Assembly (NCBI RefSeq): GCF_028368995.1 | Contig: NZ_JAQNDL010000001.1 | Coordinates: 32,001 to 96,000, forward strand | Reading direction: 5' to 3' | DNA length: 64,000 nucleotides | Origin: Nannocystis bainbridge | Lineage (GTDB): Bacteria > Myxococcota_A > Polyangia > Nannocystales > Nannocystaceae | In this document: piece by piece, positions 1 through 63,837 of the stretch | How the letters are laid out: every line of letters begins with the position of its first letter | Position numbering within the stretch: the stretch's first letter is position 1 | The notes under the pieces: model-generated | What the model was told of the DNA's origin: nothing | What the model saw: the letters and a program-made list of their open reading frames with translations, nothing else | Database searches by the model: none | Position numbers and translations under genes: made by a program

Positions 1-1069
1 TCACCGTGGCTGTCCCGAAGTACAGGTTCATCAGCCACCCGCCGACCAGCCCCATGTCGTGGTAGAGCGGCAGCCAGCTGATCATCACGTCGCCGGCCCG
101 CAGCCCGCAGCCCTCGGCCGCCGCGCGGATGTTGGCGAGCACGTTGGCGTGCGTCAGCTCGACGCCCTTGGGGTCGCCGGTGCTGCCCGACGTGTACTGC
201 AGCAGCGCCGTGTCCTCGCCGCGCAAGTCGGCCGCCACCGCCGTGTCGAGGCTGGCGTCGGCCAGCGCCTCGTCGACGTCGACCACCTGCCCGAGCGCCG
301 GCACCTGATCGCGCACCAGCTCGGCGACCCGGGCCGCGCGCGCGAACGTGATCAGCACCTCGGCCTCGGCGTTGGCCAGGATCTGCGCCTCGCGCTGGAT
401 GTACTCGGCGATCCGGTCGAGGCGGAACGGCGGGTACAGCGGCACCGGCACCCCGCCGGCCAGCTGCGCGCCCATGAACGCCGCGAAGTACCCGCGCGAC
501 GTCGGCAGCATGATCGCCACCTTGGCGCCCGGCTTCAGCCCGCGCCGCCGCAGCGCCGCCGCCACCCGCCCGGCGTCGCGCCGCAGCGCCCCGTACGTGA
601 TCGCCTCCTCGCGCCCGTCCTCGCGCAGCAGCATGACGTGGACCCGCCCCGGCGTGCGCCCGGCGTGGTACTCGAGCGCCTCGATCAGCGTCTGCGCGGC
701 GGTCGGCGCCGGCGACGGCGGCTCTGTCGGCAAGGACATGTCCTCGGAGACATGTGCTTTCGGACCTGCGCTCACGGACATGTCCGCAGCGCCATCCCCG
801 CGCGCCTGCCGGGCCAGCGCCACCAGCTGACGCGGGGTGTCGGCGACGCTGAGCGCCTCCTCCGGGAACACGACCCCGAGGCGGGCCTCGAGCCGGCCGA
901 GCAGCTCGACGCGCTCGAGGCTGCCGAGGCCGAGCTCGCGCTCGAGCGAGGCGTCGAGGTTGAGGTGGCCGAGGCCGCGTCCGTCGCCGACGGCGGAGAT
1001 GAGCTCGCCGACGACGGCGAGGACCGTGGCCTCCTCGATCGGGCCCGGAGCGGAGGGCGTGCCTGACAT
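1..1069 (-). CDS. ACP-fatty acyl-AMP ligase (FAAL) fusion; N-terminal part only, runs off the left edge
   Basis: Own translation from ATG at 1069: N-terminal carrier-like segment (LDASLERELGLGSLERVELLGRLE), then adenylation motifs LLQYTSGSTGDPKGV and the FAAL-typical SWLPLYHDMGL. Not in the ORF track because it is truncated. Confidence 0.88.
   Translation of the reverse strand, partial: MSGTPSAPGPIEEATVLAVVGELISAVGDGRGLGHLNLDASLERELGLGSLERVELLGRLEARLGVVFPEEALSVADTPRQLVALARQARGDGAADMSVSAGPKAHVSEDMSLPTEPPSPAPTAAQTLIEALEYHAGRTPGRVHVMLLREDGREEAITYGALRRDAGRVAAALRRRGLKPGAKVAIMLPTSRGYFAAFMGAQLAGGVPVPLYPPFRLDRIAEYIQREAQILANAEAEVLITFARAARVAELVRDQVPALGQVVDVDEALADASLDTAVAADLRGEDTALLQYTSGSTGDPKGVELTHANVLANIRAAAEGCGLRAGDVMISWLPLYHDMGLVGGWLMNLYFGTATV
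725..794. repeat. 14-bp palindromic-unit array (5 units), in frame in the ACP-FAAL linker
   Basis: TGTCGgcaaGGACA TGTCCtcggAGACA TGTGCtttcGGACC TGCGCtcacGGACA TGTCCgcagCGCCA, exact 14-bp phase. Confidence 0.85.
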
Positions 1070-1148
1070 GCGCGGGACGATACCCGATCCGCGGCGCCCC
1101 GCCGTCACGCCCGCGGCGGGCCCAAGCGCACGCGCGGGCGGCCGCGGC

Positions 1149-2612
1149 TCACTTCAGCTTGAACTCGATGCGCCGGTTCTTGGCCTTGCCGGTCTTGGAG
1201 TTGTTGTCGGCGATCGGCTCGTCGGGGCCAGCGCCGCGGGTCGTGATCCGCGCGGAGTCGATCCCCTTGTCGGTCAGGTACTTCTTGACCGCGTCGGCGC
1301 GCCGCTTCGAAAGGTCGACGTTGTGGTCGCGGTCGCCGGAGCTGTCGGTGTGGCCGCTGATCTCGACCTTCACCGAGGGGAAGTCCTTCAGCACCTTGAC
1401 CGCGTTGTCGAGCGTCGCCTTCGAGGTCTTCTTGATCGAGTCCTTGTCGATGTCGAAGAAGATGCCCTTGATGACGCCGGTGAACTTGGTGACCGCGCGC
1501 GGGATTTCGTCGGCGCAGCCGTCCTCGTCCTGATAGTTGTTGCGGGTCTCGGGCACGGTCGGGCACTTGTCGACGCGGTCGGGGATCCCGTCCTTGTCCT
1601 TGTCGGGCAGCGGGCAGCCGTCGGGCGCGATGCCCTTGTCGTCGGGGCACTTGTCCTTGCTGTCGACGAAGCCGTCGCCGTCGCGGTCCTTCTCCGGGCA
1701 GCCGTCGGGGGCGATGCCCCGCTCCTGCGGGCAGGCGTCGACCGAGTCGAGGAACCCGTCGCCGTCGGCGTCGCCCTCGCCCGGCTCCGGGCAGCCGTCG
1801 GGCGCCACGCCCGGGACCGTCACGCACCTGTCGACCGAGTCCTTGAAGCCGTCGCCGTCGCTGTCCGGATCGTCCCTGGTGACCGGCTGCTTCTTGCGCA
1901 GCACGAACGACAGCCCGAGCAGCACCTCGATGTGGTGCGTGCGGCCGCCGTCGATCCCGTACTGCGCGGACGCGTTGTCGCGGACATCGAGGCGCAGCGC
2001 CAGGTAGTTGTTGATGTAGAACTTCACGCCGCCGCCGAAGTGGATCGCCGGGTCGACGTCGCCCCCGAGCGCCGACGTGCCGAGCAGCCCGGGCCCGATC
2101 AGCACGAACGGCGAGATCCGGTACGGCAGCTGGGCCAGCACGTACCCACGGAACCCGCCGAGCACCGCGCCCTTGCCGTCGTTCTCGGTCTTCGTCGGCA
2201 TGATCGCGCCCTCGAGCTCGAGCCCGAGGAACGACAGCGGATAGAAGCCCGCCCGCAGGCCGATGTCCGGCGCGACCTTCTTGTACGGCTGCCAGTTGAT
2301 CGGGTCGCCCGGCTGCGGCGGCAGGTACAGCTCGTGATCGCGGGCCGGGAACATCAGGCCGGCGAAGATCCCGAACTCGCCCGACATCGCCGTCGGTCGG
2401 TAGCGCTTGATCCACGGCACCCCGCTGCGATCCTTCGCCTTCTTCGCCCGCTTCGGCTTCCCGCCCGCCGCGTCGCCCGAGGCCTCGGCGCCGGCTGGCG
2501 ACAGCGACACCGAGCCGCCCGCCTGCGGCCCCTCGGGTTCCTGCGCCGCCGCCGACAGCGACAGCGACGATACGACCACAGCAGCGGCGACGGGGAGCAA
2601 GAACTTGGACAT
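1149..2612 (-). CDS. OmpA-family outer-membrane protein with beta-barrel, thrombospondin-type-3 (DxDxDG) repeats and C-terminal OmpA peptidoglycan-binding domain
   Basis: Signal peptide; DSDGDG/DADGDG/DRDGDG/DKDKDG..D.CP repeats; ISGHTDS...NVDLSKRRA...NRRIEF. Confidence 0.93.
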   Translation of the reverse strand: MSKFLLPVAAAVVVSSLSLSAAAQEPEGPQAGGSVSLSPAGAEASGDAAGGKPKRAKKAKDRSGVPWIKRYRPTAMSGEFGIFAGLMFPARDHELYLPPQPGDPINWQPYKKVAPDIGLRAGFYPLSFLGLELEGAIMPTKTENDGKGAVLGGFRGYVLAQLPYRISPFVLIGPGLLGTSALGGDVDPAIHFGGGVKFYINNYLALRLDVRDNASAQYGIDGGRTHHIEVLLGLSFVLRKKQPVTRDDPDSDGDGFKDSVDRCVTVPGVAPDGCPEPGEGDADGDGFLDSVDACPQERGIAPDGCPEKDRDGDGFVDSKDKCPDDKGIAPDGCPLPDKDKDGIPDRVDKCPTVPETRNNYQDEDGCADEIPRAVTKFTGVIKGIFFDIDKDSIKKTSKATLDNAVKVLKDFPSVKVEISGHTDSSGDRDHNVDLSKRRADAVKKYLTDKGIDSARITTRGAGPDEPIADNNSKTGKAKNRRIEFKLK

Positions 2613-2817
2613 GGCGACCTCGTGGGGGGAGGCGCCGCGCCGGCGGTGCGCGGCAAAATCCCTTGTACATGCGTCCGTCCACGTTGCCTAGGTCGCGCCA
2701 GCCCCCCGTGCGACCGCGAAGCGCCAGGCGACGCCCGACCCGCCTGGTCATGAGGACAGGTGAGGACGGCCGCTCCGGGGCGCGCGCCCGCGCTCCTGTG
2801 GTACGGTCCCGCGCGCC

Positions 2818-3271: not shown

Positions 3272-3865
3272 ATGACCGCCCTCGCCTATCCTCGCCCCGT
3301 CCGCCTGCCGGCCTCCGTCAAGCTGGCCCTCCTCGCCCTCCTCGCCGCCCTCGCCGTGATCACGCCCCGGCCCGCGCGCGCCAGTGAGGGCGAGGTCGCT
3401 ACCGACTTCAAGCGCGGTGTGTTCGCCGAGTTCGCTTGGCGCCCGGCTCTCGTGCCGCTGCGCAACGACGCCATGCCGGCCGCGCGCACCCACATGACCT
3501 TCGGCGCCCGCCTGTCGCCCGCGGTCGCGCTCGGCACCATGGCCCACGTGACGATCTACTTCGACAAGGATCAGAAGGTCGGCGCCGGCCTCGACGCGAT
3601 GCTGCAGGTCAACGTCACCCGCGGCTTCTACCTCCGCACCGGCGTCGGCGCGATCAGCCACATCCCGGTCGCCCGCGAGCTCACCGCGCGCACCCCCGGC
3701 TACGGCGGTCAGGTCGGCCTCGGTTACGCCTTCCGCCTCTCAAAGGACAAGGGCAAGGGCCCCGGCGTCGCGCTGGCGCTCGGCGCCGACTACGACCTCC
3801 GGATCCTCGCCGACAGGAGCCGCCGCGGCATCTTCGTCCTCGGCCTCTCGTTCATGTTCGGCTGA
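3272..3865 (+). CDS. Secreted protein, probable small outer-membrane beta-barrel
   Basis: Signal peptide (LALLALLAALAVITPRPARA), alternating hydrophobic strands, aromatic C-terminus; start taken at ATG 3272. Confidence 0.7.
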   Translation: MTALAYPRPVRLPASVKLALLALLAALAVITPRPARASEGEVATDFKRGVFAEFAWRPALVPLRNDAMPAARTHMTFGARLSPAVALGTMAHVTIYFDKDQKVGAGLDAMLQVNVTRGFYLRTGVGAISHIPVARELTARTPGYGGQVGLGYAFRLSKDKGKGPGVALALGADYDLRILADRSRRGIFVLGLSFMFG

Positions 3866-3875
3866 AGTTCGCAGG

Positions 3876-3903
3876 TGTCCGTTCGGACATGTCCGAACGA
3901 ACA
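3876..3903. repeat. Two 14-bp units forming a near-perfect hairpin between convergent genes
   Basis: TGTCCgttcGGACA TGTCCgaacGAACA. Confidence 0.8.
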
Positions 3904-3910
3904 CCTCGGC

Positions 3911-4525
3911 TCAGATCTGGTTCTCGAGCACGCACTCGCCCGCGACGCAGCGGGCCACCTTGGCCGTGCACTGGTCGATCGCCACGCACGGCACCTCGTC
4001 GGGTGGCACCGGGCACTGGGCCAGGCGGTCGATGCAGTCGCGGGCGATCGCCAGCTCGCGCCCGCCGAGGCTGCACGGGCAGCAGCCGCCGACCACCTTC
4101 GTGCAGTCGACGTCGTCGACGCACGCGCAGCGCGGCTCCTGCTGGCACTGACACACCTCGCAGCCGCGCTCGTCGGTCTCGAACCCGAACGGACACAGCA
4201 GCTTGCAAAGGACCGGCTGGCAGCGCGACGCCGCGTCGACGCAGACCCCGCCGCCGCAGTCGAGGCTGCAGGTCGTCGCCCCTGTCTGCGGATCGCAGCT
4301 GCACAGCGACGGCACGCACTGCGGGCCCTTCTGACACACCTGTCCCTCCGGACACCCCGCCTGCACGCAGCCCGGCTGCGTGAAGCCCTCGCACGGATCG
4401 CCGGGAGCGTCCGTCTCCGCGACCGCGGGCACCACCTCCGCCGCCTGCATCGTCACGCCCAGGGGCACGATGTCGCACGCCAGCGCCGCCGCCGACAGGA
4501 CCACCGACAATGGCAAAGCTCGCAT
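3911..4525 (-). CDS. Cys-rich lipoprotein with antistasin-like/pacifastin-like modules
   Basis: Lipobox ALAC; CKLLCPFGFETDERGCEVCQC resembles the antistasin repeat; paralog of 4827-5699. Confidence 0.75.
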   Translation of the reverse strand: MRALPLSVVLSAAALACDIVPLGVTMQAAEVVPAVAETDAPGDPCEGFTQPGCVQAGCPEGQVCQKGPQCVPSLCSCDPQTGATTCSLDCGGGVCVDAASRCQPVLCKLLCPFGFETDERGCEVCQCQQEPRCACVDDVDCTKVVGGCCPCSLGGRELAIARDCIDRLAQCPVPPDEVPCVAIDQCTAKVARCVAGECVLENQI

Positions 4526-4690: not shown

Positions 4691-4760
4691 CTGCCTCAGG
4701 GACATGTCGTCGAGAACATGACCCCCAGGACATGCCCATCTCGACATGTCCTCGGATCAG
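4691..4760. repeat. 14-bp palindromic-unit array (about 5 units), intergenic
   Basis: ..GGACA TGTCGtcgaGAACA TGACCcccaGGACA TGCCCatctCGACA TGTCC.. Confidence 0.82.
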
Positions 4761-4826: not shown

Positions 4827-5699
4827 TCACTGCAGCACGCACTGCCCCTGCACGCACGCCGCCTTCGCGTCGGTGCACAGGTAGACCGCCGGGCACGCCA
4901 CCTGGTCGGGCGGCAGCGGGCACGGCTCGAGCTGATCGGCGCAGGCCGCGGCGACCGCCACCTCGCCTCCGCCCATGTTGCACGAGCAGCAGCCCGGGCT
5001 CGCCTTGACGCAGTCGGCGTCGACCTGGCAGCCGCACGCCGGCGGCTCGTTGCACGCGCAGACCTCACAGCCCTGCTCGTCCTGCTTGAACCCGAACTCG
5101 CAGAACAGGTTGCACACGACGGGGTTGCACACTGCCCCCTCGACGCACGTACCGCCGCCGCAATCGGGGGTGCACACGATCTGCTGCGACGCCTCGTCGC
5201 ACAGGCAGGCCGACGGCACGCACTCGATCTCGAAGTTGCACATCTGGCCGTCGGGACAGCCCTTGTCGAGGCAGCCCGGCGGCTCGAAGCCGTCGCAGAC
5301 GTTGCCGCCGGTGCTGGTCTCGCCGGTGGTCGTCGTCTCCCCGGTCGTCGTCGTCGTCTCCCCGGTCGTCGTCGTCGTCTCGCCGGTCGTGCCCGTCGTC
5401 GTCGTCTCGCCCGTGGTCGTGGTCGTCGTGCTCGTGGTCTCGCCGCCGGTCTGCGGACCGCTGGTCGAGGTGCTCTCGGTCTCGCCGCCGGTGGCCCCGC
5501 CCTCGGTCGGTCCGCCGGTCCCGGTGGTCGCCGCGCTACCCGAACCGGTGTCGGCGGTCGCCTCGCTGCTCGCGGTGCTCTCGCCGGTCTCGCCGGCCTC
5601 GGTGCTCCCGCCGGACTGGCCACACCCCATCACCAGCGCCAGCGCGGCCCCACTCGCTGCGCGCGCCCATGCTTGCTGCATCGTCATCATCATCGTCAT
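4827..5699 (-). CDS. Cys-rich lipoprotein with Thr/Gly/Glu-rich linker and antistasin-like module
   Basis: Lipobox LVMGC; (TTGETTT)n linker; CNLFCEFGFKQDEQGCEVCAC; start could be any ATG from 5681 to 5699. Confidence 0.78.
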   Translation of the reverse strand: MTMMMTMQQAWARAASGAALALVMGCGQSGGSTEAGETGESTASSEATADTGSGSAATTGTGGPTEGGATGGETESTSTSGPQTGGETTSTTTTTTGETTTTGTTGETTTTTGETTTTTGETTTTGETSTGGNVCDGFEPPGCLDKGCPDGQMCNFEIECVPSACLCDEASQQIVCTPDCGGGTCVEGAVCNPVVCNLFCEFGFKQDEQGCEVCACNEPPACGCQVDADCVKASPGCCSCNMGGGEVAVAAACADQLEPCPLPPDQVACPAVYLCTDAKAACVQGQCVLQ

Positions 5700-5823: not shown

Positions 5824-6846
5824 TTAAACCCGCACCACGGCGCAGGGCGGCGGCGCGCCCGGCAGTTGCAGGCAATAGGCAACGAAAGCCGCGAATACCG
5901 GACGCGGCGGCCCCTCGGTCGGCAGCGCGTGAAGGTGCAGCGCCGGCACCACGTTGACCTCGAGCAGCAGCGCTGCGCCCGCGCTCGCGGCCGTCGGCTG
6001 CGTGAACGCGGCCATCGGCCCGCGCAGGTCGACCCCGCCGACATCGACCCCCAGCAGATCGCACGCCGACGCCGCGACCGCCAGCCACTCCGGATGCACG
6101 ACCTCGGTCCGATCGATCACCTCGAGCTCCTCGCCCGTGATCTCGACCTCGCGCTCGCCCGGGATCGCCGCCTCGAGATCGAGCCCATAGACCTCGAGGT
6201 GCCCCTCGAGATCTTCCTCCGCCTCGATCTGGTCCATCGAGCGCAGGCTCGGCGCCGTCCACGTCCCGCGCCGCGGGTCGCGGTTCAGCGCCGCCACCTG
6301 CGCCTCGGCGCTGCGGCCGGTCGCGAGCTTCGGCCGCACCACCTCGACCGCCGCGCTCGCTCGCCCGCCGATCACCGCCACCCGCAGGTTGGTGCCGGCG
6401 ATGAACGGCTCGACCAGCACCTCCTCGTCGAGGTCGATCGCGCGGGCCCGGTCGCGCGCGCGGATCAGCGTCGCCAGGTCGCGCACGTCGGTCGCCACCC
6501 CGACCCCGCGGTTGCCCCAATTCGGCTTGACCACCAGCCGCCCGTGACGCGCCAGCAGCTCCCGGACCGCCGGCCCGTGGATGTCGCCGGCCTCGTCGAC
6601 CAGCACCCCCGCGGCGCACGGCAGCCCGCGCGCCCGCAGCAGCTCGCGGCTCAGGTGCTTGTTGTTGGCCAGCCCCTGGGCCACCTGTGTCAGGAACGGC
6701 GAGCGGGTCTTGCTGACGACCGCCGTCCGCTCGCCGTGCGTCAGGCGCATGAAGTAGTCGGTGTGCTCGCGCCCGAGCGGCTCGGCGCGGGCCCCGAGCT
6801 CCGCCGCGGCCGCCGCGATCAGCTGGTTCGTCCGGCTCCAGACCAT
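5824..6846 (-). CDS. Stand-alone ATP-grasp ligase (similar to the cyanophycin synthetase/GshAB ATP-grasp domain)
   Basis: NKHLSRELL, LVVKPNWGNRGVGV, VLVEPFIAG, GGVDL, LLEVNVVP. Confidence 0.85.
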   Translation of the reverse strand: MVWSRTNQLIAAAAAELGARAEPLGREHTDYFMRLTHGERTAVVSKTRSPFLTQVAQGLANNKHLSRELLRARGLPCAAGVLVDEAGDIHGPAVRELLARHGRLVVKPNWGNRGVGVATDVRDLATLIRARDRARAIDLDEEVLVEPFIAGTNLRVAVIGGRASAAVEVVRPKLATGRSAEAQVAALNRDPRRGTWTAPSLRSMDQIEAEEDLEGHLEVYGLDLEAAIPGEREVEITGEELEVIDRTEVVHPEWLAVAASACDLLGVDVGGVDLRGPMAAFTQPTAASAGAALLLEVNVVPALHLHALPTEGPPRPVFAAFVAYCLQLPGAPPPCAVVRV

Positions 6847-6909
6847 ACGGACATGTCCCTTCAGACCTGGCCTAATCGCCCTGTCCCTTGGAGCCTGTCG
6901 TATAGGACA
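6840..6909. repeat. 14-bp-unit array (5 units) spanning the speE stop, the intergenic gap and the ATP-grasp start
   Basis: AGACCatacGGACA TGTCCcttcAGACC TGGCCtaatCGCCC TGTCCcttgGAGCC TGTCGtataGGACA. Confidence 0.75.
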
Positions 6910-7809: not shown

Positions 7810-8292
7810 TCAGCCGCGCGGGCGGCGGCGGCTGACGATCATACCCAGACCGGTGGCGACCAGGCCGAGCATCCCGAGGCCCGCGGCCAGCGCGATCGCC
7901 TGCCCCGGCAGACCGATGATCTCGCCGGTGTGCAGCTTGAACAGCAGCCGCGTCAGCCCGCCCGCGGTGCGCCGGCGCTCGATCAGGGCCCCGTCGCCGG
8001 CGAAGTACAGCACCGTCTCCGCGTCGTCGTCGACCCAGAACACCCACGGGTCGTCGGGCTCGGTGGCCAGGGCGATGTCGGTGATCGCCTCGTCGCCGGC
8101 CTCGCGCTGGGCGCGCGCGAGCAGCTCCATCAATGGCAGCGGCTGCTCGACCACCGGCGCGCTCGGGGCCGGCGTCTTCATGCAGCCGCGGAACACCAGG
8201 ATCGCCCCCGTCAACGCGATCACCGCGAACACCGCCGACAGCGTCGCGCCGACCGCCTGGTGCCACTTGAAGAGGCTGCGTCGCATGCTCAT
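7810..8292 (-). CDS. PepSY-associated TM-helix protein (iron-uptake type)
   Basis: FKWHQAVG...ALTGAIL and LFKLHTG...VATGL histidine-TM pattern. Confidence 0.85.
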   Translation of the reverse strand: MSMRRSLFKWHQAVGATLSAVFAVIALTGAILVFRGCMKTPAPSAPVVEQPLPLMELLARAQREAGDEAITDIALATEPDDPWVFWVDDDAETVLYFAGDGALIERRRTAGGLTRLLFKLHTGEIIGLPGQAIALAAGLGMLGLVATGLGMIVSRRRPRG

Positions 8293-8340
8293 GAAGACAT
8301 GCTCCTTCGGACATGCTCTTTAAACCATGTCCTCACATCA
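8286..8340. repeat. 14-bp-unit array (3-4 units) at the TBDR-PepSY junction
   Basis: TGCTCatgaAGACA TGCTCcttcGGACA TGCTCtttaAACCA TGTCC. Confidence 0.78.
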
Positions 8341-15705: not shown

Positions 15706-15789
15706 TGCCTGTTCGGCCATGTCCTTACCGACATGCCCCTCGGCGCATGTCCCTTGCGGCATGTCCCGACGAACATGTCCCCGAGGAGC
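15706..15789. repeat. 14-bp-unit array (6 units) between the two flippase-like genes
   Basis: TGCCTgttcGGCCA TGTCCttacCGACA TGCCCctcgGCGCA TGTCCcttgCGGCA TGTCCcgacGAACA TGTCCccgaGGAGC. Confidence 0.87.
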
Positions 15790-16794: not shown

Positions 16795-16865
16795 TGTCTC
16801 ATCGGCCATGCCCTCGCGGACATGTCTGCTTCGACATGTCCGATTCGACATGCCCCCAAGGGACA
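16795..16865. repeat. 14-bp-unit array (5 units) between convergent genes
   Basis: TGTCTcatcGGCCA TGCCCtcgcGGACA TGTCTgcttCGACA TGTCCgattCGACA TGCCC..GGACA. Confidence 0.85.
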
Positions 16866-18874: not shown

Positions 18875-19125
18875 GCTCCGACCTATGGCCGAGCCGCGCG
18901 CCCGCGCCAGTGACGGCGCGCCGCTCGTCGCGTCCGCCGCGACCGCGCCGCGGCTCGCGGCGCGGCCACGTTCGCGCCTGTCCCGAAGGCCAGATTCATC
19001 AAACCCCGCCGCCCCCGGCGCCGCCCACCGATGTGGTCTGCGACGCAGGCGTACGTCCGCGAGCGAGCGACGGAGCGCCTTCGCAACCGGCGGCGCCGCC
19101 GCCTACCTGTCCCGAAGGCCAGCCT

Positions 19126-33860: not shown

Positions 33861-33871
<11 letters not shown>

Positions 33872-42197: not shown

Positions 42198-42336
42198 CGT
42201 GTCCCCGGGGACAGCTCCCCCGCCGCCGAGATGCACCGAAGGACAGGCCGCGTGCGACGAGTCGCACGGGCGCTGTTCGACCGACCACCCGCGCTTCTTC
42301 GCCCCGCCCGTCCCGCAGGCGCGCTACCCTCGGCCC

Positions 42337-43826: not shown

Positions 43827-43988
43827 GCCGCCGCGGACCCTGGACCTCGCGCGCAGGACGACGCGCGAGGTCCTTCGGGCGCCGAAGTTGGACATGACCC
43901 AAGGGACAGCCCATCCGCGGGTCGTCTCGTGACCTCGATTTGTCGCGTCACTCGCTTGTCCCGAAGGACATCCGGCGAGCGCCGCGCC

Positions 43989-49280: not shown

Positions 49281-49314
49281 CCTGTCCTGAAGGCCATTTT
49301 CGAGGACCGACCCC

Positions 49315-53013: not shown

Positions 53014-53096
53014 TGCCCGAATGACATGCCCGCATGGACATGTCCTATCACACATGCGCTTCAGAGCATGCCCAGAGGGACATGCCCGATCGGGCA
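53014..53096. repeat. 14-bp-unit array (6 units) between convergent genes
   Basis: TGCCCgcatGGACA TGTCCtatcACACA TGCGCttcaGAGCA TGCCCagagGGACA TGCCCgatcGGGCA. Confidence 0.86.
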
Positions 53097-54224: not shown

Positions 54225-55601
54225 ATGCTCGCGGCAGTGCCCCGCCACACGCTCGTCGCCGCCGCCTCCCTGGCCCTGCTCGCCCTGGCGCCCGCGCCCG
54301 CCCGCGGCGGCGAGTCGAGCGCCGAGATCCTGCACCGCCGCGGGGTGCACTGCATGGAGGAGATCGAGCGCCGCGACTGCGCGATCGAGCACTTCGAGGC
54401 GCTGCTCGAGGAGCGCACCGATCGCCGCGAGCTCGTCACCGACGGCCTGCTGCGCCTGGTCAAGCTGTACGAGAAGGAGGACCGCCCCGAGGACCTCAAG
54501 GCCGCGCTGCGCCGCTTCTGGGACGCCGGCAAGACCGACAGCCGCCGCGGCCACCTGCCCTACACCGCCCGCTTCCTGCCCAAGGACTTCGACGTCCTGT
54601 TCCACGCCCACATCGGGCGCCTCGTGGCCTCGCCGCTGGCCAAGCAGCTCGACGAGATCGCCGAGTTCGTCATGACCTGCGACCCGCACGTGCGCGGCCA
54701 GCTCGACGACCTGCGGATCCTCCGCAAGGCCCAGCGCAAGTCCAGAGAGACAGGTGTGCCTGTCCAAAAGGCCATGTCGGACGTCGTCGCCGAGGAGAAG
54801 AAGCGCAGCGAGGCTTACAAGAAGCGGCGCGCCCAGGCCGAGGCGGAGGGCCGACCGCGCCGCCACGAGCCGGTGTTCGCCGACGCCACTTGCCAGGTCG
54901 CGCGGGCCCTCGGCGACGACACCGTGGCGGCCTGGACCCGCGGCGCGTTCGCCCTCGCGCACGGCGATTTCCGCCGCTCCGCCGCGATCCTCGAGATCCC
55001 CGACCTCGCCGCCAAGCTGGCCGCCGCGACCGCCGCCGGGCGACTGGTCGTCCGTGGCGACGGCATCTGGGCGCTCACCCCGCTGCGCTACCAGGGCGGC
55101 GAGGTGCTGCTGCGCGTGCTCGACACCGGCGAGCTGGTGGTCGCGCCGCCGGCGGTGATGACGGAGATCGCCGCCAACTTCGCCCGCGGCAAGCGCACGC
55201 TGCCCCGCGAGGTCGACCGCCTCGTCGTCGGCACGCCGGTCGACGCCGGCTTCTTCGCCGTCGCCACCGAGGCCGCGGTCCAGGAGCTCGGCTTCGGCAA
55301 CATGTCGAAGGGCCGCCGCGGCCTGCTCCAGCTGCTCCTCCCGCGCCCCGAGGGCCTGCAGATGGCCGGCGTCGCCCACGAGTACTTCGGCTTCTTCCTC
55401 CGCATGCCGACCGACACGCCGCTCAAGGCCGGCGCGCTGGTCGACGTGGTCCAGCGGATGATCGCCAACCAGGCCGAGGCCGACTCCGACAGCGCCGAAT
55501 TCCTGCGCCTGCTCGACGTGACTCAAGCCACGGACAAGCGCGCGCTGCTCCTGTCCTACGTCCTCTCGCGCCGGCAGATCGAGACGATCGTGCTGCGCTG
55601 A
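54225..55601 (+). CDS. Secreted hypothetical protein (TPR-like N-terminus)
   Basis: Signal peptide, helical N-terminal segment, strong GC3 bias. Confidence 0.72.
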   Translation: MLAAVPRHTLVAAASLALLALAPAPARGGESSAEILHRRGVHCMEEIERRDCAIEHFEALLEERTDRRELVTDGLLRLVKLYEKEDRPEDLKAALRRFWDAGKTDSRRGHLPYTARFLPKDFDVLFHAHIGRLVASPLAKQLDEIAEFVMTCDPHVRGQLDDLRILRKAQRKSRETGVPVQKAMSDVVAEEKKRSEAYKKRRAQAEAEGRPRRHEPVFADATCQVARALGDDTVAAWTRGAFALAHGDFRRSAAILEIPDLAAKLAAATAAGRLVVRGDGIWALTPLRYQGGEVLLRVLDTGELVVAPPAVMTEIAANFARGKRTLPREVDRLVVGTPVDAGFFAVATEAAVQELGFGNMSKGRRGLLQLLLPRPEGLQMAGVAHEYFGFFLRMPTDTPLKAGALVDVVQRMIANQAEADSDSAEFLRLLDVTQATDKRALLLSYVLSRRQIETIVLR

Positions 55602-55611: not shown

Positions 55612-57321
55612 GTGGCAGTCTTGTCCCCCGTGGCGACCCCCCTGTCCGCCGTCCCGCTCCTCGCCTGGCTCGCGCTCGCCGGCGTGGCACCTGGCGGTTC
55701 GAGCATGTCCTCCAGCGCAGGTCCGATCGGCCAGGTGCGTTCGGACATGTCCGAACGGCCAGCCCTGATCGCCCTCGCGCCGGCCCGCGGCGGCAAACCG
55801 AAGACCCCGGCGCCCGCACCGGCGCCCGAGCCGACCCTGGCCCCGCCGACCTACGGCCCCGAGCAGGCCGCCGCCGACATCGAGGTGGTGCTGACCGGCC
55901 GCGGCAAGGACTACCTGCAGGCGCGCGCGCGCCTCGAGCAGCACGCCGATGTCGCCGCGCCGCGGGTCACCGCGCGCCTGGCCGCCACGCCGGCGCCGAC
56001 GATGCCGGAGCAGCGCCGCCTGCTCGCGCTGCTCGGCGGCATCGCCCGGCCCGAGGACATCCCGCTGTTCGCCGACGCGATGCGCCGCGAGGTCGCGGCC
56101 GCGGTCAAGCAGTCGCAGGAGCAAGGCGTCGAGCTGCCGGCGGCCGAGCCGTGGCGCGAGATCTTGCGCGCGCAGGGCCCCGCGGCCGCGCCGGCGCTGA
56201 CGGGGCTGGTGGCCGAGAAGACCTTCAGCGAGGAGCTGCGCGGCCTCTTGCTCGCCGACCTCGTCGCCGTCACCCCGGCCGACAAGCTGCCCGAGTTGGT
56301 CGCGCTGGTCGGCCTCGGCGCGCCGAGCCTGCGCGCCGCGCTGCGCCAGGCGATCGTCCGCCGCGCCCACTCCTCGCCGGCCGAGCGCGCGCAGCTGATC
56401 CAGGTCGTCGACGCCGCGCTCGCCGCTCGCGAGCCCGCGCGCCTGCCCGGCCTCGTGCTGCTGCGCGCCGCGCTCGGCGGCGCCGGCGACACCGCCTTCA
56501 CCACCCGCGCCGCCGCCCTCGCCGAGGACACAGCCGGCGAGTTTGCCACCCGCGTCGCCGCCATCCGCGTGCTCGTCGCTCGCCGCAGCGACCCCGCCAC
56601 CCAGACCGTGCTCGCGCGCCTCGCCGAGCAGCACCTGCCGGCCGACCAGCGGACCGCCCTGCGCAGCGAGATCCTCGGCAGCCTCGCCCTCGCCGGCCTC
56701 GATGCCACCCGCGCCGCCGCCGTCGTCGACCGCCTGCAGCTCATGAGCGCCGCGGCCCCGCGCCTCGCCACCACCGCCTTCGCCGTCGCCGCGCTGCCGC
56801 CCAGCGGCGCCTGGCTCGAAGTCGGCCAGCGCCACGCCTGGCCCGAGGTCCGCGCCGCCGCGCTCGCCCGCGTCGAGGCGCCGTGCTCGACGGCGATCCT
56901 CCGCCGCCTGCGCGACGGCACCGTCACCCGCGGCGACACCTTCGAGCCCGACGCCGCGGTCGCGCGCGAGGTCCTGGTCGCGCTCGGTCGCTGCGGCGGG
57001 CCCGACGCCTTCGCCGCGCTGCAGGCCGTGGTCGTCGACGCCGAACAGAACGTCGACCGCCGGGCCGAGGCCGCGCGTCAGCTCGTCGACCGCCACGGCT
57101 CCGCCGGCGCCGACGTCGTCGCCGCGGTGCTGCGCAGCTCCGACGACCTCGGGGTCGCGCTCCGCCTCGTGCGCGCGCTGCAGCGGCTGGAGGGCCCCGC
57201 CAGCGACGACGTGCGCCAGGCCCTGTGCGCCGCCGGCAAGCGCCAGGAGCTGGCCACCAGCGCCCAGCGGGCCGTTCGCGGCCTGTTCCCCGACCTCGAC
57301 GATCCCTGCGCGGGCGGCTGA
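55612..57321 (+). CDS. Ala/Leu-rich HEAT/ARM-repeat-like exported protein
   Basis: Hydrophobic N-terminus; repeats such as EVRAAALAR and VDRRAEAARQL; start may be GTG 55630. Confidence 0.7.
   Translation: MAVLSPVATPLSAVPLLAWLALAGVAPGGSSMSSSAGPIGQVRSDMSERPALIALAPARGGKPKTPAPAPAPEPTLAPPTYGPEQAAADIEVVLTGRGKDYLQARARLEQHADVAAPRVTARLAATPAPTMPEQRRLLALLGGIARPEDIPLFADAMRREVAAAVKQSQEQGVELPAAEPWREILRAQGPAAAPALTGLVAEKTFSEELRGLLLADLVAVTPADKLPELVALVGLGAPSLRAALRQAIVRRAHSSPAERAQLIQVVDAALAAREPARLPGLVLLRAALGGAGDTAFTTRAAALAEDTAGEFATRVAAIRVLVARRSDPATQTVLARLAEQHLPADQRTALRSEILGSLALAGLDATRAAAVVDRLQLMSAAAPRLATTAFAVAALPPSGAWLEVGQRHAWPEVRAAALARVEAPCSTAILRRLRDGTVTRGDTFEPDAAVAREVLVALGRCGGPDAFAALQAVVVDAEQNVDRRAEAARQLVDRHGSAGADVVAAVLRSSDDLGVALRLVRALQRLEGPASDDVRQALCAAGKRQELATSAQRAVRGLFPDLDDPCAGG
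55692..55761. repeat. 14-bp-unit array (5 units), in frame after the signal peptide
   Basis: TGGCGgttcGAGCA TGTCCtccaGCGCA GGTCCgatcGGCCA GGTGCgttcGGACA TGTCCgaacGGCCA. Confidence 0.82.
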
Positions 57322-57323
57322 CG

Positions 57324-58613
57324 ATGTCCACCGGCCGCGACAAGCCCAAGCTCCGCAAGGTCGAGCGCCTCAACCTCCAGCGCGGCGACGAGGCGCTGCT
57401 CGTCCTGCGCGATCCGACCGGCCTCAGCGATCAGGTCGCGTTCCCGCAAGAAGCGTCGGTCGTGCTCGACGCGCTCGACGGTCAGCGCACCGTGCCGCAG
57501 ATCCGCCAGTCGCTGGCGATGCGCGGGATCCTCGAGATCGAGCTCGCCGAGCTCGAGGCGCTGGTGCGCGACCTCGAGGTCGCCGGCTACCTCGACGACG
57601 CCGCCTTCCGCGCCCGCTGGGAGGCCATCCATCGCGAGTTCCTGACCAACCCGACGAGGCGCCCGCGCTGGGCCGGTCTGCTCTACCCCGACGATCCGGC
57701 CGCGCTCGCCGAGCTGCTGGCCGCGACCCTACCTGACCCTTCAGCCAGGTTCACCGACACCGACGCCGCGCTCGGGGTGCTCCTGCCGCACCAGCCGCTG
57801 CCCAGCCCCGACGCACCCGCCGACGCGGCCGTGCGCGCCGCCGCCAGCCTCGCCGACGAGGTCCTGCGCGGGCTCCCGCGCGCCCGCGACATCGACCTCG
57901 TCGTCATCCTCGGCACCGACTACCACCCCGGTCTGCAGCCGTTCGTCGTCACCGACAAGCGCTACGCCACGCCGCGCGGCGAGCTGCCGTCGGACCCGGC
58001 GCTGGTGCGGGCGCTCGACCGCCGCCTGCCGTGGATCCGCCGCGAGGAGATCCGTCACCGCGAGGCGATGAGCCTCGAGCTCGCGGCGGCTGTCCTTCAG
58101 CACCTGTACGATGGGACATGTCCTCCGGTGCTGCCGGTGCTGTGCGGCCCGGGCGCGGTCGAGCTCGACGAGGGCGGGCCGGTCGAGGCGTTCCTGGCCA
58201 CCATGGAACATGTCCTCGAGGACAGGCGCGTGCTGTGGTGGGTGACCGCCGAGCTGGGGCATGAGGGCCCGGCGTTCGGCCGCCCGGCGCTGACGAAGGA
58301 TCGCGTCGCGGCGCTGATGGCCCGCGACCGGGCCGTGCTCGCCGCGCTCGCCGACGGCCGGCCCGAGCAGCTCGGCCGCTGCTGCAAGGACGTGCCCGGC
58401 CTCGATCCGCCGAGCGGCACCGCGGCGCTGCTCACCGCGGCCCGGCTGTTCCCGGTCGGCTACGGCGCCGACCTCGTCGCCTACGCGGCGGGTCGCCCGG
58501 TCGGCGCCGACGAGGGCTGGATCGGCCTCGGCGGCGCCCGCTTCACGCGACCCGTCGACGACGGCGACGACGACGACGACGACTTCAGGCCTTCGCGCCC
58601 GCGAGTCGCATGA
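57324..58613 (+). CDS. AmmeMemoRadiSam system protein B (Memo-like) with a PqqD-like N-terminus
   Basis: LRDPTGLS..LDGQRT N-terminal domain; AGLLYPDDP, VVILGT, YATPRG, HEGPAFG; start at ATG 57324. Confidence 0.8.
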   Translation: MSTGRDKPKLRKVERLNLQRGDEALLVLRDPTGLSDQVAFPQEASVVLDALDGQRTVPQIRQSLAMRGILEIELAELEALVRDLEVAGYLDDAAFRARWEAIHREFLTNPTRRPRWAGLLYPDDPAALAELLAATLPDPSARFTDTDAALGVLLPHQPLPSPDAPADAAVRAAASLADEVLRGLPRARDIDLVVILGTDYHPGLQPFVVTDKRYATPRGELPSDPALVRALDRRLPWIRREEIRHREAMSLELAAAVLQHLYDGTCPPVLPVLCGPGAVELDEGGPVEAFLATMEHVLEDRRVLWWVTAELGHEGPAFGRPALTKDRVAALMARDRAVLAALADGRPEQLGRCCKDVPGLDPPSGTAALLTAARLFPVGYGADLVAYAAGRPVGADEGWIGLGGARFTRPVDDGDDDDDDFRPSRPRVA

Positions 58614-60051: not shown

Positions 60052-60163
60052 TGACAAGAGGGCCATGACCGTGAGGTCATGGCCCTTCGTTCATGTCCGT
60101 TCAGACAGGCTCAAAGGGCCATGACCGCGAGGCCATGGCCCTTTCTACATGTCCATTCGGACA
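60052..60163. repeat. 14-bp-unit array (8 units, 2 x 56-bp higher-order repeat) between convergent genes
   Basis: TGACAagagGGCCA TGACCgtgaGGTCA TGGCCcttcGTTCA TGTCCgttcAGACA | GGCTCaaagGGCCA TGACCgcgaGGCCA TGGCCctttCTACA TGTCCattcGGACA. Confidence 0.9.
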
Positions 60164-60171
60164 GGGCCGAC

Positions 60172-61024: not shown

Positions 61025-62518
61025 TCAACTTCGCAGCACGCGCAGCGCTCGCTCGAGGTCCGACATCACCGTGTCGTCGGCCGGGTTTCGTTGACCCGGC
61101 GGGAGTTCACCCTCGCGGCGGATCACGTACGATGGATGATACGTGACGTGAAGTGGGATCTGCAGGCCCGCACCGGCGTCGTCGTAGGTAAAACGACGGT
61201 TGCGCATCTGTGCCAACTTCAGATCCTGATCGGCGCCGAGCAGCAACATCCCCGCATACCTGCCGAGCGCCACGATGACGTCGGGGCGGATCGCCCGCAC
61301 CTGGGCGCGCAGGAACGGCGAACACCGCTCGATCTCCTCAGCGGCCGGCTCGCGGTTGCCAGGCGGCCGGCACTTGAGCACGTTGGCGATGTAGACCTGC
61401 TCGCGCTTCATGCCGAGGCGCTCGATCCACTGGGTGAGCCGCCGGCCCGCCGCGCCGACGAACGGCTCGCCGCGCCGATCCTCGTCCGCGCCGGGCGCCT
61501 CGCCGACGAACATCACGCGGGCGTTGGGGTCGCCGACCCCGAATACGATGTTCGTGCGGGTCTTGGCGAGCTTGCAGCGGGTGCAGTCACCGACGTTGCG
61601 GGTCCGCAGATACTCGAGCTTCTGCGCCGGCGTCCACGCCTGAGCCTGCGCGCGCAGCCCCGCGTCGGCCGCTCGCGGCGGACCCTCGCTCTCGGCCGCG
61701 CGCGGCGGCCCTGAGGGATCCGCCAGCGGCAGACTCGCGCTGCGCGGTCGCGCCGGCGGCTCCGAAGGCGCACGCGAAGACGGCGCGCTCGCGGGCCGCT
61801 GCGGCTCGCCTGATCGATCCGCGAACGGTGGGCTCGCGGGCCGCTGCGGTTCGCGCGAACGATCCGCGAACGGCGGGCTCGCGGGCCGCTGCGGCTCGCG
61901 CGATCGATCCGCGGGCGGAGGGCTCGCGGGCCGCTGTGGCTCGCGCGATCGATCCGCGGGCGGAGGGCTCGCGGGCCGCTGCGCCGGCGGCGGTGCCGAT
62001 CGAGGCGGTGTCACCTCGTCCTCCCAGTCGTTCGGCGGCGGCTCGTCGTCCGACGAGTGCGACTCGCGGCCTGCGACGAGGAACGTCTCGTCTCGCATCG
62101 GCGCGCGACCGGGCGATCCGGTCTCTCGCGCCGGCGATGGCGACGCGCGACCGGGCGCGGCCGCAAGCGGCGGGCTCTCTCGCGTCGGTGCGCGGCCGGG
62201 GTTTGCGAAGCCCTCTCGGCTCGGTGCGCTGGCGGCTCCTGCATCGCGCTGCGGCGGACTCGACGGCTCGTGAGATCCGCGCGGTGCGGATCCGGCCTGG
62301 CCTTCGGGCCATGTCGGTGCGCCCGCGCTCGCGGATCGATCCTCGGTCACCTGTCCGGACGGCCAGGTAGGATCCGCGCGCGGACCCGGCTCGGGCGTGC
62401 GGCGTGGAGACGCCGCGGCCGACACGTACGCCAAGCCCCGGAACTCCCGGAGGTGGCGCAGGTGCGCGGCGAACTGGACCGCCAGTCTTCGCCTCGCGTC
62501 GTGTCGATCGCCCTCCAC
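61025..62518 (-). CDS. Uracil-DNA glycosylase family 4 with a long Pro-rich N-terminal extension
   Basis: [44 protein letters not shown]. Confidence 0.92.
61787..61982. repeat. 45-bp coding tandem repeat (QRPASPP[P/F]ADRS[R/G]EP x about 4.3) in UDG
   Basis: GCTCGCGGGCCGCTG recurs at 61787, 61832, 61877, 61922 and 61967. Confidence 0.9.
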
Positions 62519-62531
62519 GAGATCCTCCGCT

Positions 62532-63821
62532 TCACGCCGCCGCGAGCGCGTCCAGCAACCACGTAGCCAGCGCCGCCTTGGCGATCGGCGGGCCCGAGGC
62601 GTTCACGGCGATCGCGTCGACGTCGCGAGTCAGCAGCAGCCCCGCATTGGTCGCCGAAGCGAAGCCGACCCCTGGCGCACCGACACGGTTGACGAAGATC
62701 GCGTCGGCGCCCTTGGCCCGCAGCTTGGCCTCGCCGAGGCGGATCAGCTCCTGCTGCAACCTGTCCTCGGGGCCATCTTCGACAGTCTGCGCGGCGAACC
62801 CGAGGAAGCGCGAGCGCGGGGTCCCGGCTGGCGCGCCGCGGCCGAAGCGAGCCGTGAGCGCGGCGAGGATGTCGCGCGCGGCTCGCCAGCCGAACGTCGG
62901 CAACCTCGCCAGCAGCTCGGCCTTCTCGAGCTTGCGCGCGGCCCCGCCGTCGATCTCGAGGTCCTGCACCGCCGCCACCATCGCCACCCAGTCATAGGGC
63001 CCCTGGGACAGCTCGCCTTCCAGCGCCGCGAACATCTGCTCCGCGGTCTCGACATCGACGCGGCGCACGCCCGGCGGCGTCGCCAGCTCGACCGGCCCTG
63101 CCACCAGCGTCACCTCGGCGCCGGCGCTGCGGGCCGCCTCGGCCAGCGCGAACCCCATCGCCCCGGTCGAAGCGTTGGTGACGAAGCGGACCGGATCGAT
63201 GTACGTGCGCGTCGGGCCGGCCGAGACCAGCACGCGCTTCCCCGTCCACGGCCCGCGCGCGGGCGGGCGCAACCTGGCCAGCGCGGCGGCGACGATCAGC
63301 GGCGGATCGATCATGCGGCCCTCGCCGATCCACCCGCACGCCAGCTGCCCGCGATCGGGCCCGACGAACTCGGCCCCGCGGGTGCGCAGCGTCGCCAGAT
63401 TTGCCTGCGTCGCCGGGTGCCGCCACATGTTGGTGTTCATCGCCGGCGCCCACAGCACCGGCGCGCGCGTGGCCAGCAGCACCGTCGCAGCGAGATCGTC
63501 GGCCATGCCCGCGGTCGCGCGCGCCAGCAGGTCGGCGGTCGCCGGCGCGACGACCACGAGGTCGGGCCAGTCGGCGAGCTCGATGTGACCGACGTGGCCC
63601 TCTTCTTCCGGGTCGAGCAGCCGCTTGCGCACCGGCCGGGTCGACACCGTCGCCAGCGACAGCTCGCTGACGAACGCCGCGGCCGCCGGCGTCATCACCA
63701 CCTGGACCTCGCAGCCGGCCGCCACGAACGCCCGCACCAGCTCCGGCGTCTTGTAGGCCGCGATCCCGCCGCTGACGATCAGCAGCACGCGACGGCCGCG
63801 CGGACGTGTCCCTGAGGACAT
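62532..63821 (-). CDS. coaBC: Bifunctional phosphopantothenoylcysteine decarboxylase/synthetase
   Basis: SGGIAAYK, HIELADW, APATAD, PAMNTNMW, LACG..GEGRM, AGPT..IDPVRFVTNASTG.MG; start at ATG 63821 (or TTG 63845). Confidence 0.96.
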   Translation of the reverse strand: MSSGTRPRGRRVLLIVSGGIAAYKTPELVRAFVAAGCEVQVVMTPAAAAFVSELSLATVSTRPVRKRLLDPEEEGHVGHIELADWPDLVVVAPATADLLARATAGMADDLAATVLLATRAPVLWAPAMNTNMWRHPATQANLATLRTRGAEFVGPDRGQLACGWIGEGRMIDPPLIVAAALARLRPPARGPWTGKRVLVSAGPTRTYIDPVRFVTNASTGAMGFALAEAARSAGAEVTLVAGPVELATPPGVRRVDVETAEQMFAALEGELSQGPYDWVAMVAAVQDLEIDGGAARKLEKAELLARLPTFGWRAARDILAALTARFGRGAPAGTPRSRFLGFAAQTVEDGPEDRLQQELIRLGEAKLRAKGADAIFVNRVGAPGVGFASATNAGLLLTRDVDAIAVNASGPPIAKAALATWLLDALAAA

Positions 63822-63837
63822 GTCCGTCGAGCCAGCC

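Follow-up and report, generated by a model that had tools for sequence, protein, structure and literature searches.

The 64-kb window analysed here (the whole stretch of 64,000 nucleotides from Nannocystis bainbridge) is studded with a short bipartite palindrome, TGTCC-N4-GGACA, which recurs throughout the genome as solo sites and as tandem arrays in exact 14-bp phase. Because its spacer is strict, its symmetry dyadic, its origin substitutional and its abundance graded with phylogeny, and because its arms are held beside a free spacer with no signal of the transcribed strand, we read it, tentatively and at somewhat less than even confidence, as a lineage-specific recognition word in duplex DNA for a putative dimeric protein. 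It would resemble the highly iterated palindrome HIP1 of cyanobacteria and the uptake signal sequences (USS) of Pasteurellaceae, and would be kept by selection or by a drive linked to recognition. An earlier note, made from the letters of the window, had counted more than 30 loci of this 14-bp dyad at about one per 2 kb; the window holds 51 (each with at least one unit within one mismatch of TGTCC/GGACA), and the genome-wide density of one locus per 2.06 kb fits that estimate.

The studied genome (G000, an 11.05-Mb assembly in 5 contigs with 71–72% G+C) was searched with a degenerate word, TGNCC-N4-GGNCA, and with the core word TGTCC-N4-GGACA. The former has 51 exact matches in the window, where 100 shuffles that preserve dinucleotides average 1.01 and never exceed 4, and 4525 genome-wide; the core word has 1987. 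With 0, 1 and 2 mismatches the core counts are 1987, 4258 and 7530, as against 3, 161 and 3152 for the reversed, non-complemented control word, and roughly 10,000 real units make up 5351 loci, 3631 of them solo, the longest arrays spanning 11 units. Spacer length is strict: replacing N4 in the core word by N3, N5 or N6 reduces the 1987 matches to 16, 5 and 3. When all 1024 five-base arms were scored in the form X-N4-revcomp(X), TGTCC stood 156-fold above its 5-mer-frequency expectation, compared with a 99th percentile of 3.1-fold for the other arms with an expectation of at least 5 (n = 422), and the sole arm of comparable over-representation was that of the doubly changed TGTCT-N4-AGACA. The excess holds within called genes, where 791 perfect sites lie: shuffling synonymous codons within genes, a null that the earlier note had proposed, leaves 19–27 (a 34-fold excess), and shuffling codon order leaves 5–6. 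The autocorrelation of CATG, also proposed there, has the predicted peak, nearest neighbours lying 14 bp apart 3548 times, compared with 66 times at 13 bp and 248 at 15 bp (background about 65), and unit-to-unit distances peak at 14, 28, 42, 56, 70 and 84 bp (485, 305, 232, 128, 64 and 32 counts). Rfam, at gathering scores, returned no family match in the window, and no earlier description of the repeat was found in the literature searched, with subscription journals and supplements outside that search. A viral-contig collection gave one hit, which is uninformative; soil-metagenome contigs aligned to window positions 30000–38000 were all short, and none spanned any array.

For units with CATG at both ends, the position-weight matrix reads CA/TG-Y-C-C-N4-G-G-R-CA/TG, where Y is T (0.51) or C (0.38), R is A (0.56) or G (0.31), and N4 is nearly free and rather A+T-rich. 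G2 and C13 vary least, and the commonest one-off variants are the transitions C5 to T (407) and G10 to A (461). Perfect sites outside arrays tend toward C-TGTCC...GGACA-G, which extends the dyad to 16 bp, and their spacers lean to YYRR, often with a central CG (CCGA 107, TTCG 105, CGAA 88, CCGG 81). Where sites abut, two arms fuse into GGACATGTCC, and arrays with an exact 14-bp phase result. At these junctions the hexamers ACATGC (374) and GCATGT (297) are preferred to the palindromic ACATGT (268) and GCATGC (139), the palindromic forms occurring at about 0.7–0.76 of the expectation under independence.

That N4 differs in almost every unit is borne out by the genome, where adjacent cores are identical in 3.5% of 2329 pairs (1.2% in shuffles) and reverse-complementary in 1.9% (1.2% in shuffles), a minor effect. 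Neighbouring cores being almost unrelated, recent slippage is excluded, as the earlier note had argued. Some kinship within arrays is nevertheless detectable, since at lags 1–4 the pairs whose interiors agree at 8 or more of the 10 positions make up 5.5–9.6% within arrays, compared with 1.8% among random pairs, and the 28- and 56-bp periods reported by Tandem Repeats Finder indicate that some arrays were enlarged by duplication of two- or four-unit blocks. A general 28-bp alternation of T- and C-type units was looked for and rejected (same-base ratios 0.98–1.11 at lags 1–3). Between loci there is next to no copying: 692 of the 696 three-unit 42-mers in the genome are confined to one locus.

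The word is a genus mark of Nannocystis, and the solo word is older than the arrays, with an abundance graded by relatedness. A scan for two abutting junctions, with one genome per species, returned 78 stretches, 75 of them from Nannocystis, Nannocystaceae or Myxococcales and the rest from a gammaproteobacterial metagenome-assembled genome (MAG), Diplocloster and a Terriglobales MAG. Phased arrays (four CATGs in 14-bp phase) number 869 in G000, 409–527 in five other large Nannocystis genomes and 1–13 in five smaller ones, the reversed control giving 0–1; outside the genus, 49 of 50 genomes have none and one has 2. Counts of the solo word fall from 1550–2090 in the large Nannocystis genomes through 114–959 in the small ones to 87–169 in two sister genera, where the sites stand singly, in genes as well as in spacers; a genome of one further genus has 20, and most others are near the control level of 0–10.

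The origin of genic sites was followed by aligning those of the window with G009 and G002, two distant members of the genus. In 16 of 24 comparisons the aligned segments are of equal length, and in 13 of these 16 the distant genome is without the motif, often with 2–5 differences at arm positions; most genic solo sites thus differ by substitution and not by insertion. The polarity of gain is taken from the lower density of the word in the distant genomes, and on this basis the alignments show that sites, also inside genes, arise in place by base substitution. The first base of the perfect site at 30172 is T in G000, as against C or G in the four relatives aligned there. Constraint on existing sites was measured by picking sites in G000 and scoring divergence between two relatives, G005 and G007, with expectations corrected for codon position. 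In perfect genic sites the arms carry 2 changes where 9.8 are expected (0.2 times background), whereas N4 carries 8 where 3.2 are expected and the flanks 53 where 24.0 are (2.2 times), so that the arms of perfect sites are held while spacer and flanks drift. When one-mismatch sites are included the ratios become 0.80 (arms), 1.63 (N4) and 1.93 (flanks), and a second set of 26 window sites compared over 10 relative pairs gives 0.97, 2.06 and 1.52.

Gene and intergenic labels come from a home-made caller based on codon statistics (8289 genes, 84% coding DNA), which must be expected to misplace gene starts, since the arrays have an ATG on each strand; with such an ATG every 14 bp and a TGA in some units, arrays supply both false starts and real stop codons, and those at 24096, 33861 and 36155 start in or at one. 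Placement strongly favours the 3' ends of genes. Of the 1987 perfect sites, 1179 (59%) are intergenic, in 15.5% of the DNA, 17 straddle a boundary and 791 (40%) are genic. A locus is carried by 733 of 1483 convergent spacers (49%; 8.0 units/kb), 966 of 4445 tandem spacers (2.6 units/kb) and 222 of 1505 divergent ones (0.75 units/kb), and in tandem spacers loci lie a median of 74 nt past the upstream stop, compared with 196 nt ahead of the next start, a quarter of them within 20 nt of that stop. The earlier view that placement ignores gene boundaries is therefore wrong in part. Genic sites are spread evenly along gene length; those of the window fall mostly in linkers or loops of Pfam-annotated proteins, and the reading phases of the 791 (449/278/64) follow the fit of each phase to G+C-rich third positions. 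At the scale of the chromosome, loci number 35–148 per 200 kb and occur on all five contigs, and the suggested mapping of their density relative to origin and terminus gave no pattern on these contigs, nor any relation to GC-skew switches. In DNA shared with relatives and DNA specific to G000 (just 15.6 kb), densities are 5.5 and 3.8 units/kb in intergenic regions and 0.21 and 0.37 in genes.

Arrays evolve differently from perfect genic sites. Five relatives (G001, G003, G005, G007 and G010) are colinear with the whole window at 13–16% third-position divergence from G000, and the arrays at 15706, 16795 and 33861 occur in all six genomes in the same place and CATG phase, with cores almost wholly different between flanking genes that are about 90% identical. 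The closest pair, G005 and G007, was compared over 480 kb (3.7% divergence overall, 6.4% in ordinary intergenic DNA, 5.9% at third codon positions). In 23 arrays of equal length (63 units) the N4 positions diverge by 30–41%, compared with 1.6% for CATG positions and 13.8% for the 30-bp flanks; array cores thus diverge 5–10 times faster than other intergenic DNA, and just the CATG junction looks constrained. Units chosen in G000 give 7–9.5% in arms and 27–45% in cores over an intergenic background of 3.7%, from small samples. Changes are clustered: of 101 units compared, the interior is identical in 26 and differs at 5–7 of 10 positions in 14, often with the entire interior swapped between unchanged CATGs. 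Such fast interiors need an added process, whether unit replacement, duplication, or template switching among some 10,000 look-alike units. Gene-sized indels between species often start at arrays. Within a gene, the BacA/UppP gene (51144–52172) encodes an insertion of about 75 residues, placed between positions 77 and 78 of the profile and specified by decayed units (GHVPEDM...), and the length of this insert varies from -153 to +93 bp among relatives, always in multiples of 3; such in-frame arrays form variable loops that are probably disordered. In the G007 ortholog the insertion contains a TAA stop and the frame changes, the frame being intact in G001, G003, G005 and G010; this ortholog could be a pseudogene, a sequencing error in the repeat or a split gene.

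Hairpin formation in RNA was assessed in several ways. In tandem spacers oriented by transcription, loops read TTCG 85 times and CGAA 81 times, and changes tolerable through G-U pairing are not clearly favoured over their mirror changes (300 against 262), so that no strand asymmetry relative to transcription was found in either. Covariation of mirror positions is weak, with mutual information of 0.007–0.020 bits compared with up to 0.010 in non-mirror arm pairs. On single-strand folding, seven of eight arrays gave diffuse ensembles with z-scores of -1.1 to -3.2; the eighth, the block at 60059, is strongly structured, with 12-bp hairpins (z = -8.6). Its hairpins are followed by T-rich runs on both strands and are present in five of six genomes (truncated in G003), and the block looks like a bidirectional terminator made of three fused units. 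Intrinsic terminators are strand-specific, GC-rich hairpins with a U-tract behind them. As a class the sites were rejected as intrinsic terminators, for their flanks are neighbouring half-units without a T-run and strand asymmetry is lacking; the 60059 block alone fits.

Several known repeat systems share features with the word. Repetitive extragenic palindromic (REP) sequences are imperfect palindromes of 20–40 nt with a conserved head tetranucleotide, sited after genes and between convergent genes. Like REPs and the bacterial interspersed mosaic elements (BIMEs), the Nannocystis units are palindromic, clustered, and found behind genes and between convergent ones; they differ in being 14 bp long, without a GTAG-type head, abutting at a fixed period and not strictly extragenic, 791 of 1987 perfect sites lying in called genes, some of them Pfam-annotated. 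The Y1/RAYT transposase (PF01797) was not detected in G000 (90.5% complete) by a search that was positive in 6 of 14 control genomes, and unit size, genic sites and missing RAYT all speak against REP/BIME membership. Miniature inverted-repeat transposable elements (MITEs) have terminal inverted repeats, a body of 50–500 bp, a target-site duplication and near-identical copies. This class was dismissed by the earlier note and is rejected here as well, together with copy-and-paste spread generally, given 14-bp units, the unique 42-mers, no RAYT, and genic sites of unchanged length with no target-site duplication.

The earlier note had also set aside HIP1 and the DNA uptake sequences (DUS) of Neisseriaceae. 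That dismissal rested on consensus mismatch alone, and by behaviour both are the closest known analogues. USS and DUS occur about once per 1–2 kb in lineage-specific dialects, arise in place in tolerant segments of genes, are enriched after genes as inverted pairs and follow no strand rule; the Nannocystis word agrees with them in density, in graded abundance by relatedness and in its origin in place, but uptake sequences are neither palindromic nor in phased arrays. Rickettsia palindromic elements (RPE) are 100–150-bp copies of a master element that lie in frame in genes. They resemble the BacA/UppP insertion of about 75 aa as palindromic repeat DNA translated into extra peptide, and differ in that the Nannocystis inserts consist of arrayed 14-bp units whose cores are unrelated. 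The short tandemly repeated repetitive (STRR) sequences of cyanobacteria are short tandem intergenic heptamers. With these and with the TAACTGA direct repeats of Beggiatoaceae (PMC4679880), the arrays have in common that a very short unit is repeated a few times in tandem at many intergenic loci; those, however, are identical direct heptamers, whereas the Nannocystis units are dyads with variable cores that also occur singly in genes. HIP1 (GCGATCGC) is presented in PMC5861425 as a short cyanobacterial palindrome, 15–300-fold over-represented both inside open reading frames (ORFs) and in the stretches separating them, and conserved between genomes, for which it reports no peptide, RNA or gene-regulation role and an unsettled function; two further papers tie it to the methylases DmtA and DmtC (PMC13756078, PMC4390886). 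The Nannocystis word is likewise more than 10-fold over-represented in and between ORFs (156-fold over the 5-mer expectation, 34-fold over the codon null), and its genic sites are conserved beyond background (arms 2 against 9.8, flanks 53 against 24.0, in small samples). Its sequence is different, it is bipartite with a free 4-bp spacer, it forms phased tandem arrays with fast cores, it has a strong 3'-end bias, and no matching methylase pattern was found. A profile search of G000 returned no C5 methylase (PF00145) and no Vsr (PF03852), the latter being present in 1 of 10 other genomes of the genus; the single D12-class adenine methylase is found in 33 of 36 genomes of the family and so does not track the motif. 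None of the three co-distributes with the word as its driver would, and the methylation role entertained by the earlier note gains no support from gene content.

Under the preferred reading, each monomer of the putative protein would read a half-site of about 5–6 bp ([C/A]TGTCC) and leave the 4-bp spacer uncontacted. Sites arise in place by substitution, the arms being held once perfect, and behind genes, chiefly convergent ones, they abut into 14-bp-phased arrays. These persist in place and phase while their interiors turn over, in part because whole units are replaced or duplicated from one CATG junction to the next, and could load several dimers 14 bp, or about 120 degrees of helical twist, apart. 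What keeps the word may be selection for a chromosome-level function, such as organising the nucleoid or recognising self during DNA uptake or recombination, or it may be drive; recognition-linked drive has reportedly been proposed for uptake sequences. The earlier note had likewise taken the units for sites of a dimeric protein, which the strict dyad, fixed spacer, held arms, lack of transcription asymmetry and weak covariation favour, and had added that this protein may polymerise along arrays. A fuller version, which we regard as improbable, makes the arrays loading tracks on which a polymerising, Nannocystis-specific dimeric protein would follow a 14-bp screw of three units per four turns and mark the ends of transcription units and convergent pairs as domain or topological boundaries; the scattered genic word (about one per 2–4 kb) would then be a 'self' signature for recombination or DNA uptake, and cores would be diversified by a hitherto undescribed cassette exchange swapping 10-bp interiors between CATGs.

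Several observations weigh against a protein-read word kept by selection. No binding protein was found for it; the candidate considered, the myxobacterial nucleoid protein CdbA, is an unsupported lead, its motif being given in PMC7156744 as a GC-rich direct repeat separated by 4 bp, and not a dyad. Array arm positions 3–5 and 10–12 diverge by 9.5–24% between G005 and G007, compared with 6.4% in intergenic DNA, so simple purifying selection on every array unit fails. Covariation, although weak, is real (C3-G12 385 against 287 expected, T4-A11 193 against 128), and together with the clustered multi-base changes it points to mutation driven by hairpins or templates, a process that requires no protein. 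Arrays are nearly missing from the five smaller genomes of the genus (1–13, as against 409–869), so that use of the word does not everywhere require them. A bias toward 3' ends is equally expected of any tolerated junk insertion, gene and intergenic labels rest on a crude caller, the relatives are few and not independent, and the three-genome tests rest on tens of sites.

A first alternative, unlikely in our estimate, is a selfish mini-repeat without host function, in which CATG-bounded 14-bp cassettes are inserted, duplicated and swapped at existing CATG sites or arrays, for example when DNA is cut and rejoined at the self-complementary junction or when the template switches from unit to unit, and accumulate where they do least harm. 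It would account for the convergent over tandem over divergent bias, for array lengths that vary between species and gene-sized indels that start at arrays, for interiors replaced whole between unchanged CATGs (5–7 of 10 positions differing in 14 of 101 units, none in 26), for the 28- and 56-bp block duplications and the within-array excess of unit matches (5.5–9.6% against 1.8%), and for the varying BacA insertion; a duplication of about 20 bp at the gene junction also flanks the spacer at 36155. As the added process that fast array interiors call for, it could in principle be the whole story for the arrays. Against it, solo sites in genes differ from distant relatives by substitution at equal length and so cannot be 14-bp insertions, their enrichment survives the synonymous-codon null, and perfect genic arms change 5-fold more slowly than the gene background and 11-fold more slowly than their own flanks. 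Nor do arrays duplicate each other (of 696 42-mers, 692 are unique), and G000 has no Y1/RAYT transposase.

Two further explanations are less well supported than the selfish repeat. The word might be an unused by-product of repair, spread because mismatch correction or short-patch gene conversion favours it, a process said to have been proposed for very-short-patch (VSP) repair and, on one occasion, for HIP1. Substitutional origin in place, the excess over the synonymous-codon null, a genic phase bias that follows GC3 compatibility, the predominance of C5 and G10 transitions among variants (407 and 461) and arms held without visible gene-level function would all be expected of such a bias; exact 14-bp arrays and 3'-end placement are not explained by bias alone, and with Vsr and C5 methylase missing from G000 and the D12 enzyme distributed family-wide, we consider it improbable. 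Very unlikely, to our mind, is an element acting in RNA, as a terminator or a block to 3' exonucleases through hairpins in 3' untranslated regions, in the manner of REP hairpins in E. coli. The proximity of tandem loci to the upstream stop, the 49% of convergent intergenic regions with a locus and the 60059 block with its T-rich tails favour such a role, but loops and G-U-compatible changes are symmetrical with respect to transcription, covariation is weak, the seven other folded arrays are diffuse, flanks are half-units without a T-run, 40% of perfect sites are genic and Rfam has no match in the window.

The loci of the window are listed in the table below. At all 18 array positions of the earlier note the units keep an exact 14-bp register and meet at a CATG junction, those given as 46901, 51375, 53014 and 55692 reading as starts one unit later. 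Ten of its 12 solo positions are exact matches within one mismatch of TGTCC/GGACA; of the others, 27084 fits the degenerate pattern, is 2 mismatches from the core and may be a chance match, and 57734 (TGACCCTTCAGCCA) is one base off even the degenerate pattern. The arrays at 8286–8341 and 26478–26575 have no unit within one mismatch and stand outside the 51 loci, while 4691–4760 and 6840–6909 are wider forms of loci among them. Tandem Repeats Finder reports periods of 14, 28 or 56 at 16819, 24106, 26504, 33873, 33959, 36162, 46911, 53001, 55718 and 60059.

Table. Sites and arrays of the 14-bp family in the window, with their context in G000 and in relatives.
Feature	Positions	Strand	Context and comparison
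Solo unit, 1 mismatch	11–24		In called gene
5-unit phased array	725–794		N-terminal part of minus-strand called gene; equal length in 4 of 5 relatives, G007 1 bp shorter
2-unit near-perfect 28-bp palindrome	3876–3903		Convergent intergenic region
Perfect solo site	4341–4354		Genic, peptide CPEGQV; retained in 5 of 5 relatives
CATG-phased run of about 5 units	4691–4760		Gene boundary
Solo site	5245–5258		Genic, peptide CPDGQM; retained in 5 of 5 relatives
Degenerate 5-unit array	6840–6909		Gene boundary
4 units in CATG phase, TGCTC type	8286–8341		Between two minus-strand genes
4-unit array	10645–10700		Intergenic
6-unit array	15706–15789		Upstream of gene 15798; 5 relatives have an orthologous array with different cores
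5-unit array	16795–16864		Convergent intergenic; 6 genomes same phase, different cores; Tandem Repeats Finder match
Solo site	18979–18992		Intergenic
Solo site	19108–19121		Intergenic; 14-mer identical to 18979
Perfect solo site	20781–20794		Alpha-amylase-family gene; G009 equal length, 2 mismatches
3-unit array	23128–23169		Right behind stop of gene 22254–23138
Three more units (23221, 23247, 23309)	23221–23322		Intergenic region shared with array 23128
6-unit array	24096–24179		First TGA is stop codon of gene 23499–24098
7-unit array	26478–26575		TGCCC/TGTCC units alternate; 28-bp super-period, 88% match
1-mismatch site	27681–27694		Glycosidase-like gene (HVYEDN); present in G009 too; chance or coding constraint could explain it
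1-mismatch site	29329–29342		Low-complexity N-terminus of LamB-porin-family gene
1-mismatch site	29796–29809		LamB-porin-family gene; distant relatives equal length, without motif
Perfect site	30172–30185		LamB-porin-family gene; distant relatives equal length, 2–4 mismatches
5-unit array	33861–33930		Starts at stop codon of gene 32798–33871; 6 genomes same phase, cores differ
2–3 units	33959–33995		Ahead of gene 34011 start
Two perfect sites 22 bp apart	34918–34953		Linker of fused solute-binding/permease gene; in 5 of 5 relatives, not in G009 or G002
5-unit array	36155–36224		Immediately 3' of stop codon
Second array of the 36155 spacer	36267–36322		
Two solo sites	39878–39918		50–90 bp upstream of CLC-channel gene (39966)
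Perfect site	41539–41552		Linker between CLC and CBS domains; not in G009, at equal length
Perfect solo site	42200–42213		2 bp past stop codon; 0.9–1.4-kb insertions in 3 relatives start there
2 units	43260–43287		Intergenic
Two solo sites (43895, 43957)	43895–43970		Intergenic
Units at 44837, 44851, 44962, 45334	44837–45347		Low-complexity N-terminal region of ClpA/B-like ATPase gene
3 units	46915–46956		Near 3' end of ClpA/B-like ATPase gene
Solo site	49283–49296		Between tandem genes
Array-derived in-frame insertion, about 75 aa	51380–51600	+	BacA/UppP gene; units at 51389, 51431, 51560
5-unit array	53027–53096		Intergenic
1-mismatch site	54761–54774		Genic
4-unit array	55706–55761		5' end of called gene 55630–57321; start call uncertain
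2 units	58091–58118		Memo-family gene
Perfect site	58211–58224		Memo-family gene; G009 1 mismatch, G002 3, both equal length
56-bp x 1.9 block plus ordinary units	60059–60165		Convergent intergenic; 11–12-bp perfect hairpins (GGGCCATGACC-N4-GGTCATGGCCC)
Solo site	62352–62365		Intergenic
1-mismatch site	62762–62775		Genic; retained in 5 of 5 relatives
2 units	63807–63834		Intergenic

Some of these loci coincide with larger differences between genomes. At 3865–3927 all five relatives have a segment of 1.7–2.0 kb with a long open frame, and G000 has the 28-bp palindrome instead. The spacer at 36120–36367 is 137–308 bp long and carries arrays in G000, G007, G001 and G003, flanked by a junction duplication of about 20 bp (GAGG..GATGAGC), and in G010 and G005 there is no spacer, the genes overlapping by ATGA; the pattern suggests either an ancient insertion that was twice lost precisely or repeated insertion. 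At the two sites of 39878–39918 the arms are retained in most of the six genomes (degraded in G003), with a different N4 in each, in a poorly conserved spacer. Just upstream, at 39700–39870, a conserved block (GTTAAGC..CTCCTT, then CGCGCGGTCTCGACC), which may be a promoter or a small RNA, stands in otherwise unalignable surroundings. Two tandem repeats are unrelated to the 14-bp family: a 45-bp unit at 61787–61983 (4.4 copies, 92% matches, Tandem Repeats Finder score 317), whose region likewise varies from species to species (gaps at 61732–62281), and a 21-bp GTC-rich unit (3–5.7 copies) inside a called gene at 5317–5439. Among tetranucleotides, CTAG is strongly avoided throughout G000 (1509 copies, 0.05 of the mononucleotide and 0.2 of the Markov expectation), and GATC and TCGA reach 3–4 times their mononucleotide expectation.

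Highly iterated palindromes have posed a problem ever since the description of HIP1, and what they do is still debated (PMC5861425). The Nannocystis word is a second case, unrelated to HIP1, in a culturable soil myxobacterium, and its multi-copy phased arrays are ideal baits for a reader protein. Its graded abundance, from background through about 100, 1000 and 2000 copies and then to arrays, permits phylogenetic profiling for the responsible gene. In practice, the arrays give conserved proteins such as BacA/UppP extra loops of variable length and coincide with indel breakpoints, and their fast-evolving cores would serve as sensitive strain markers.

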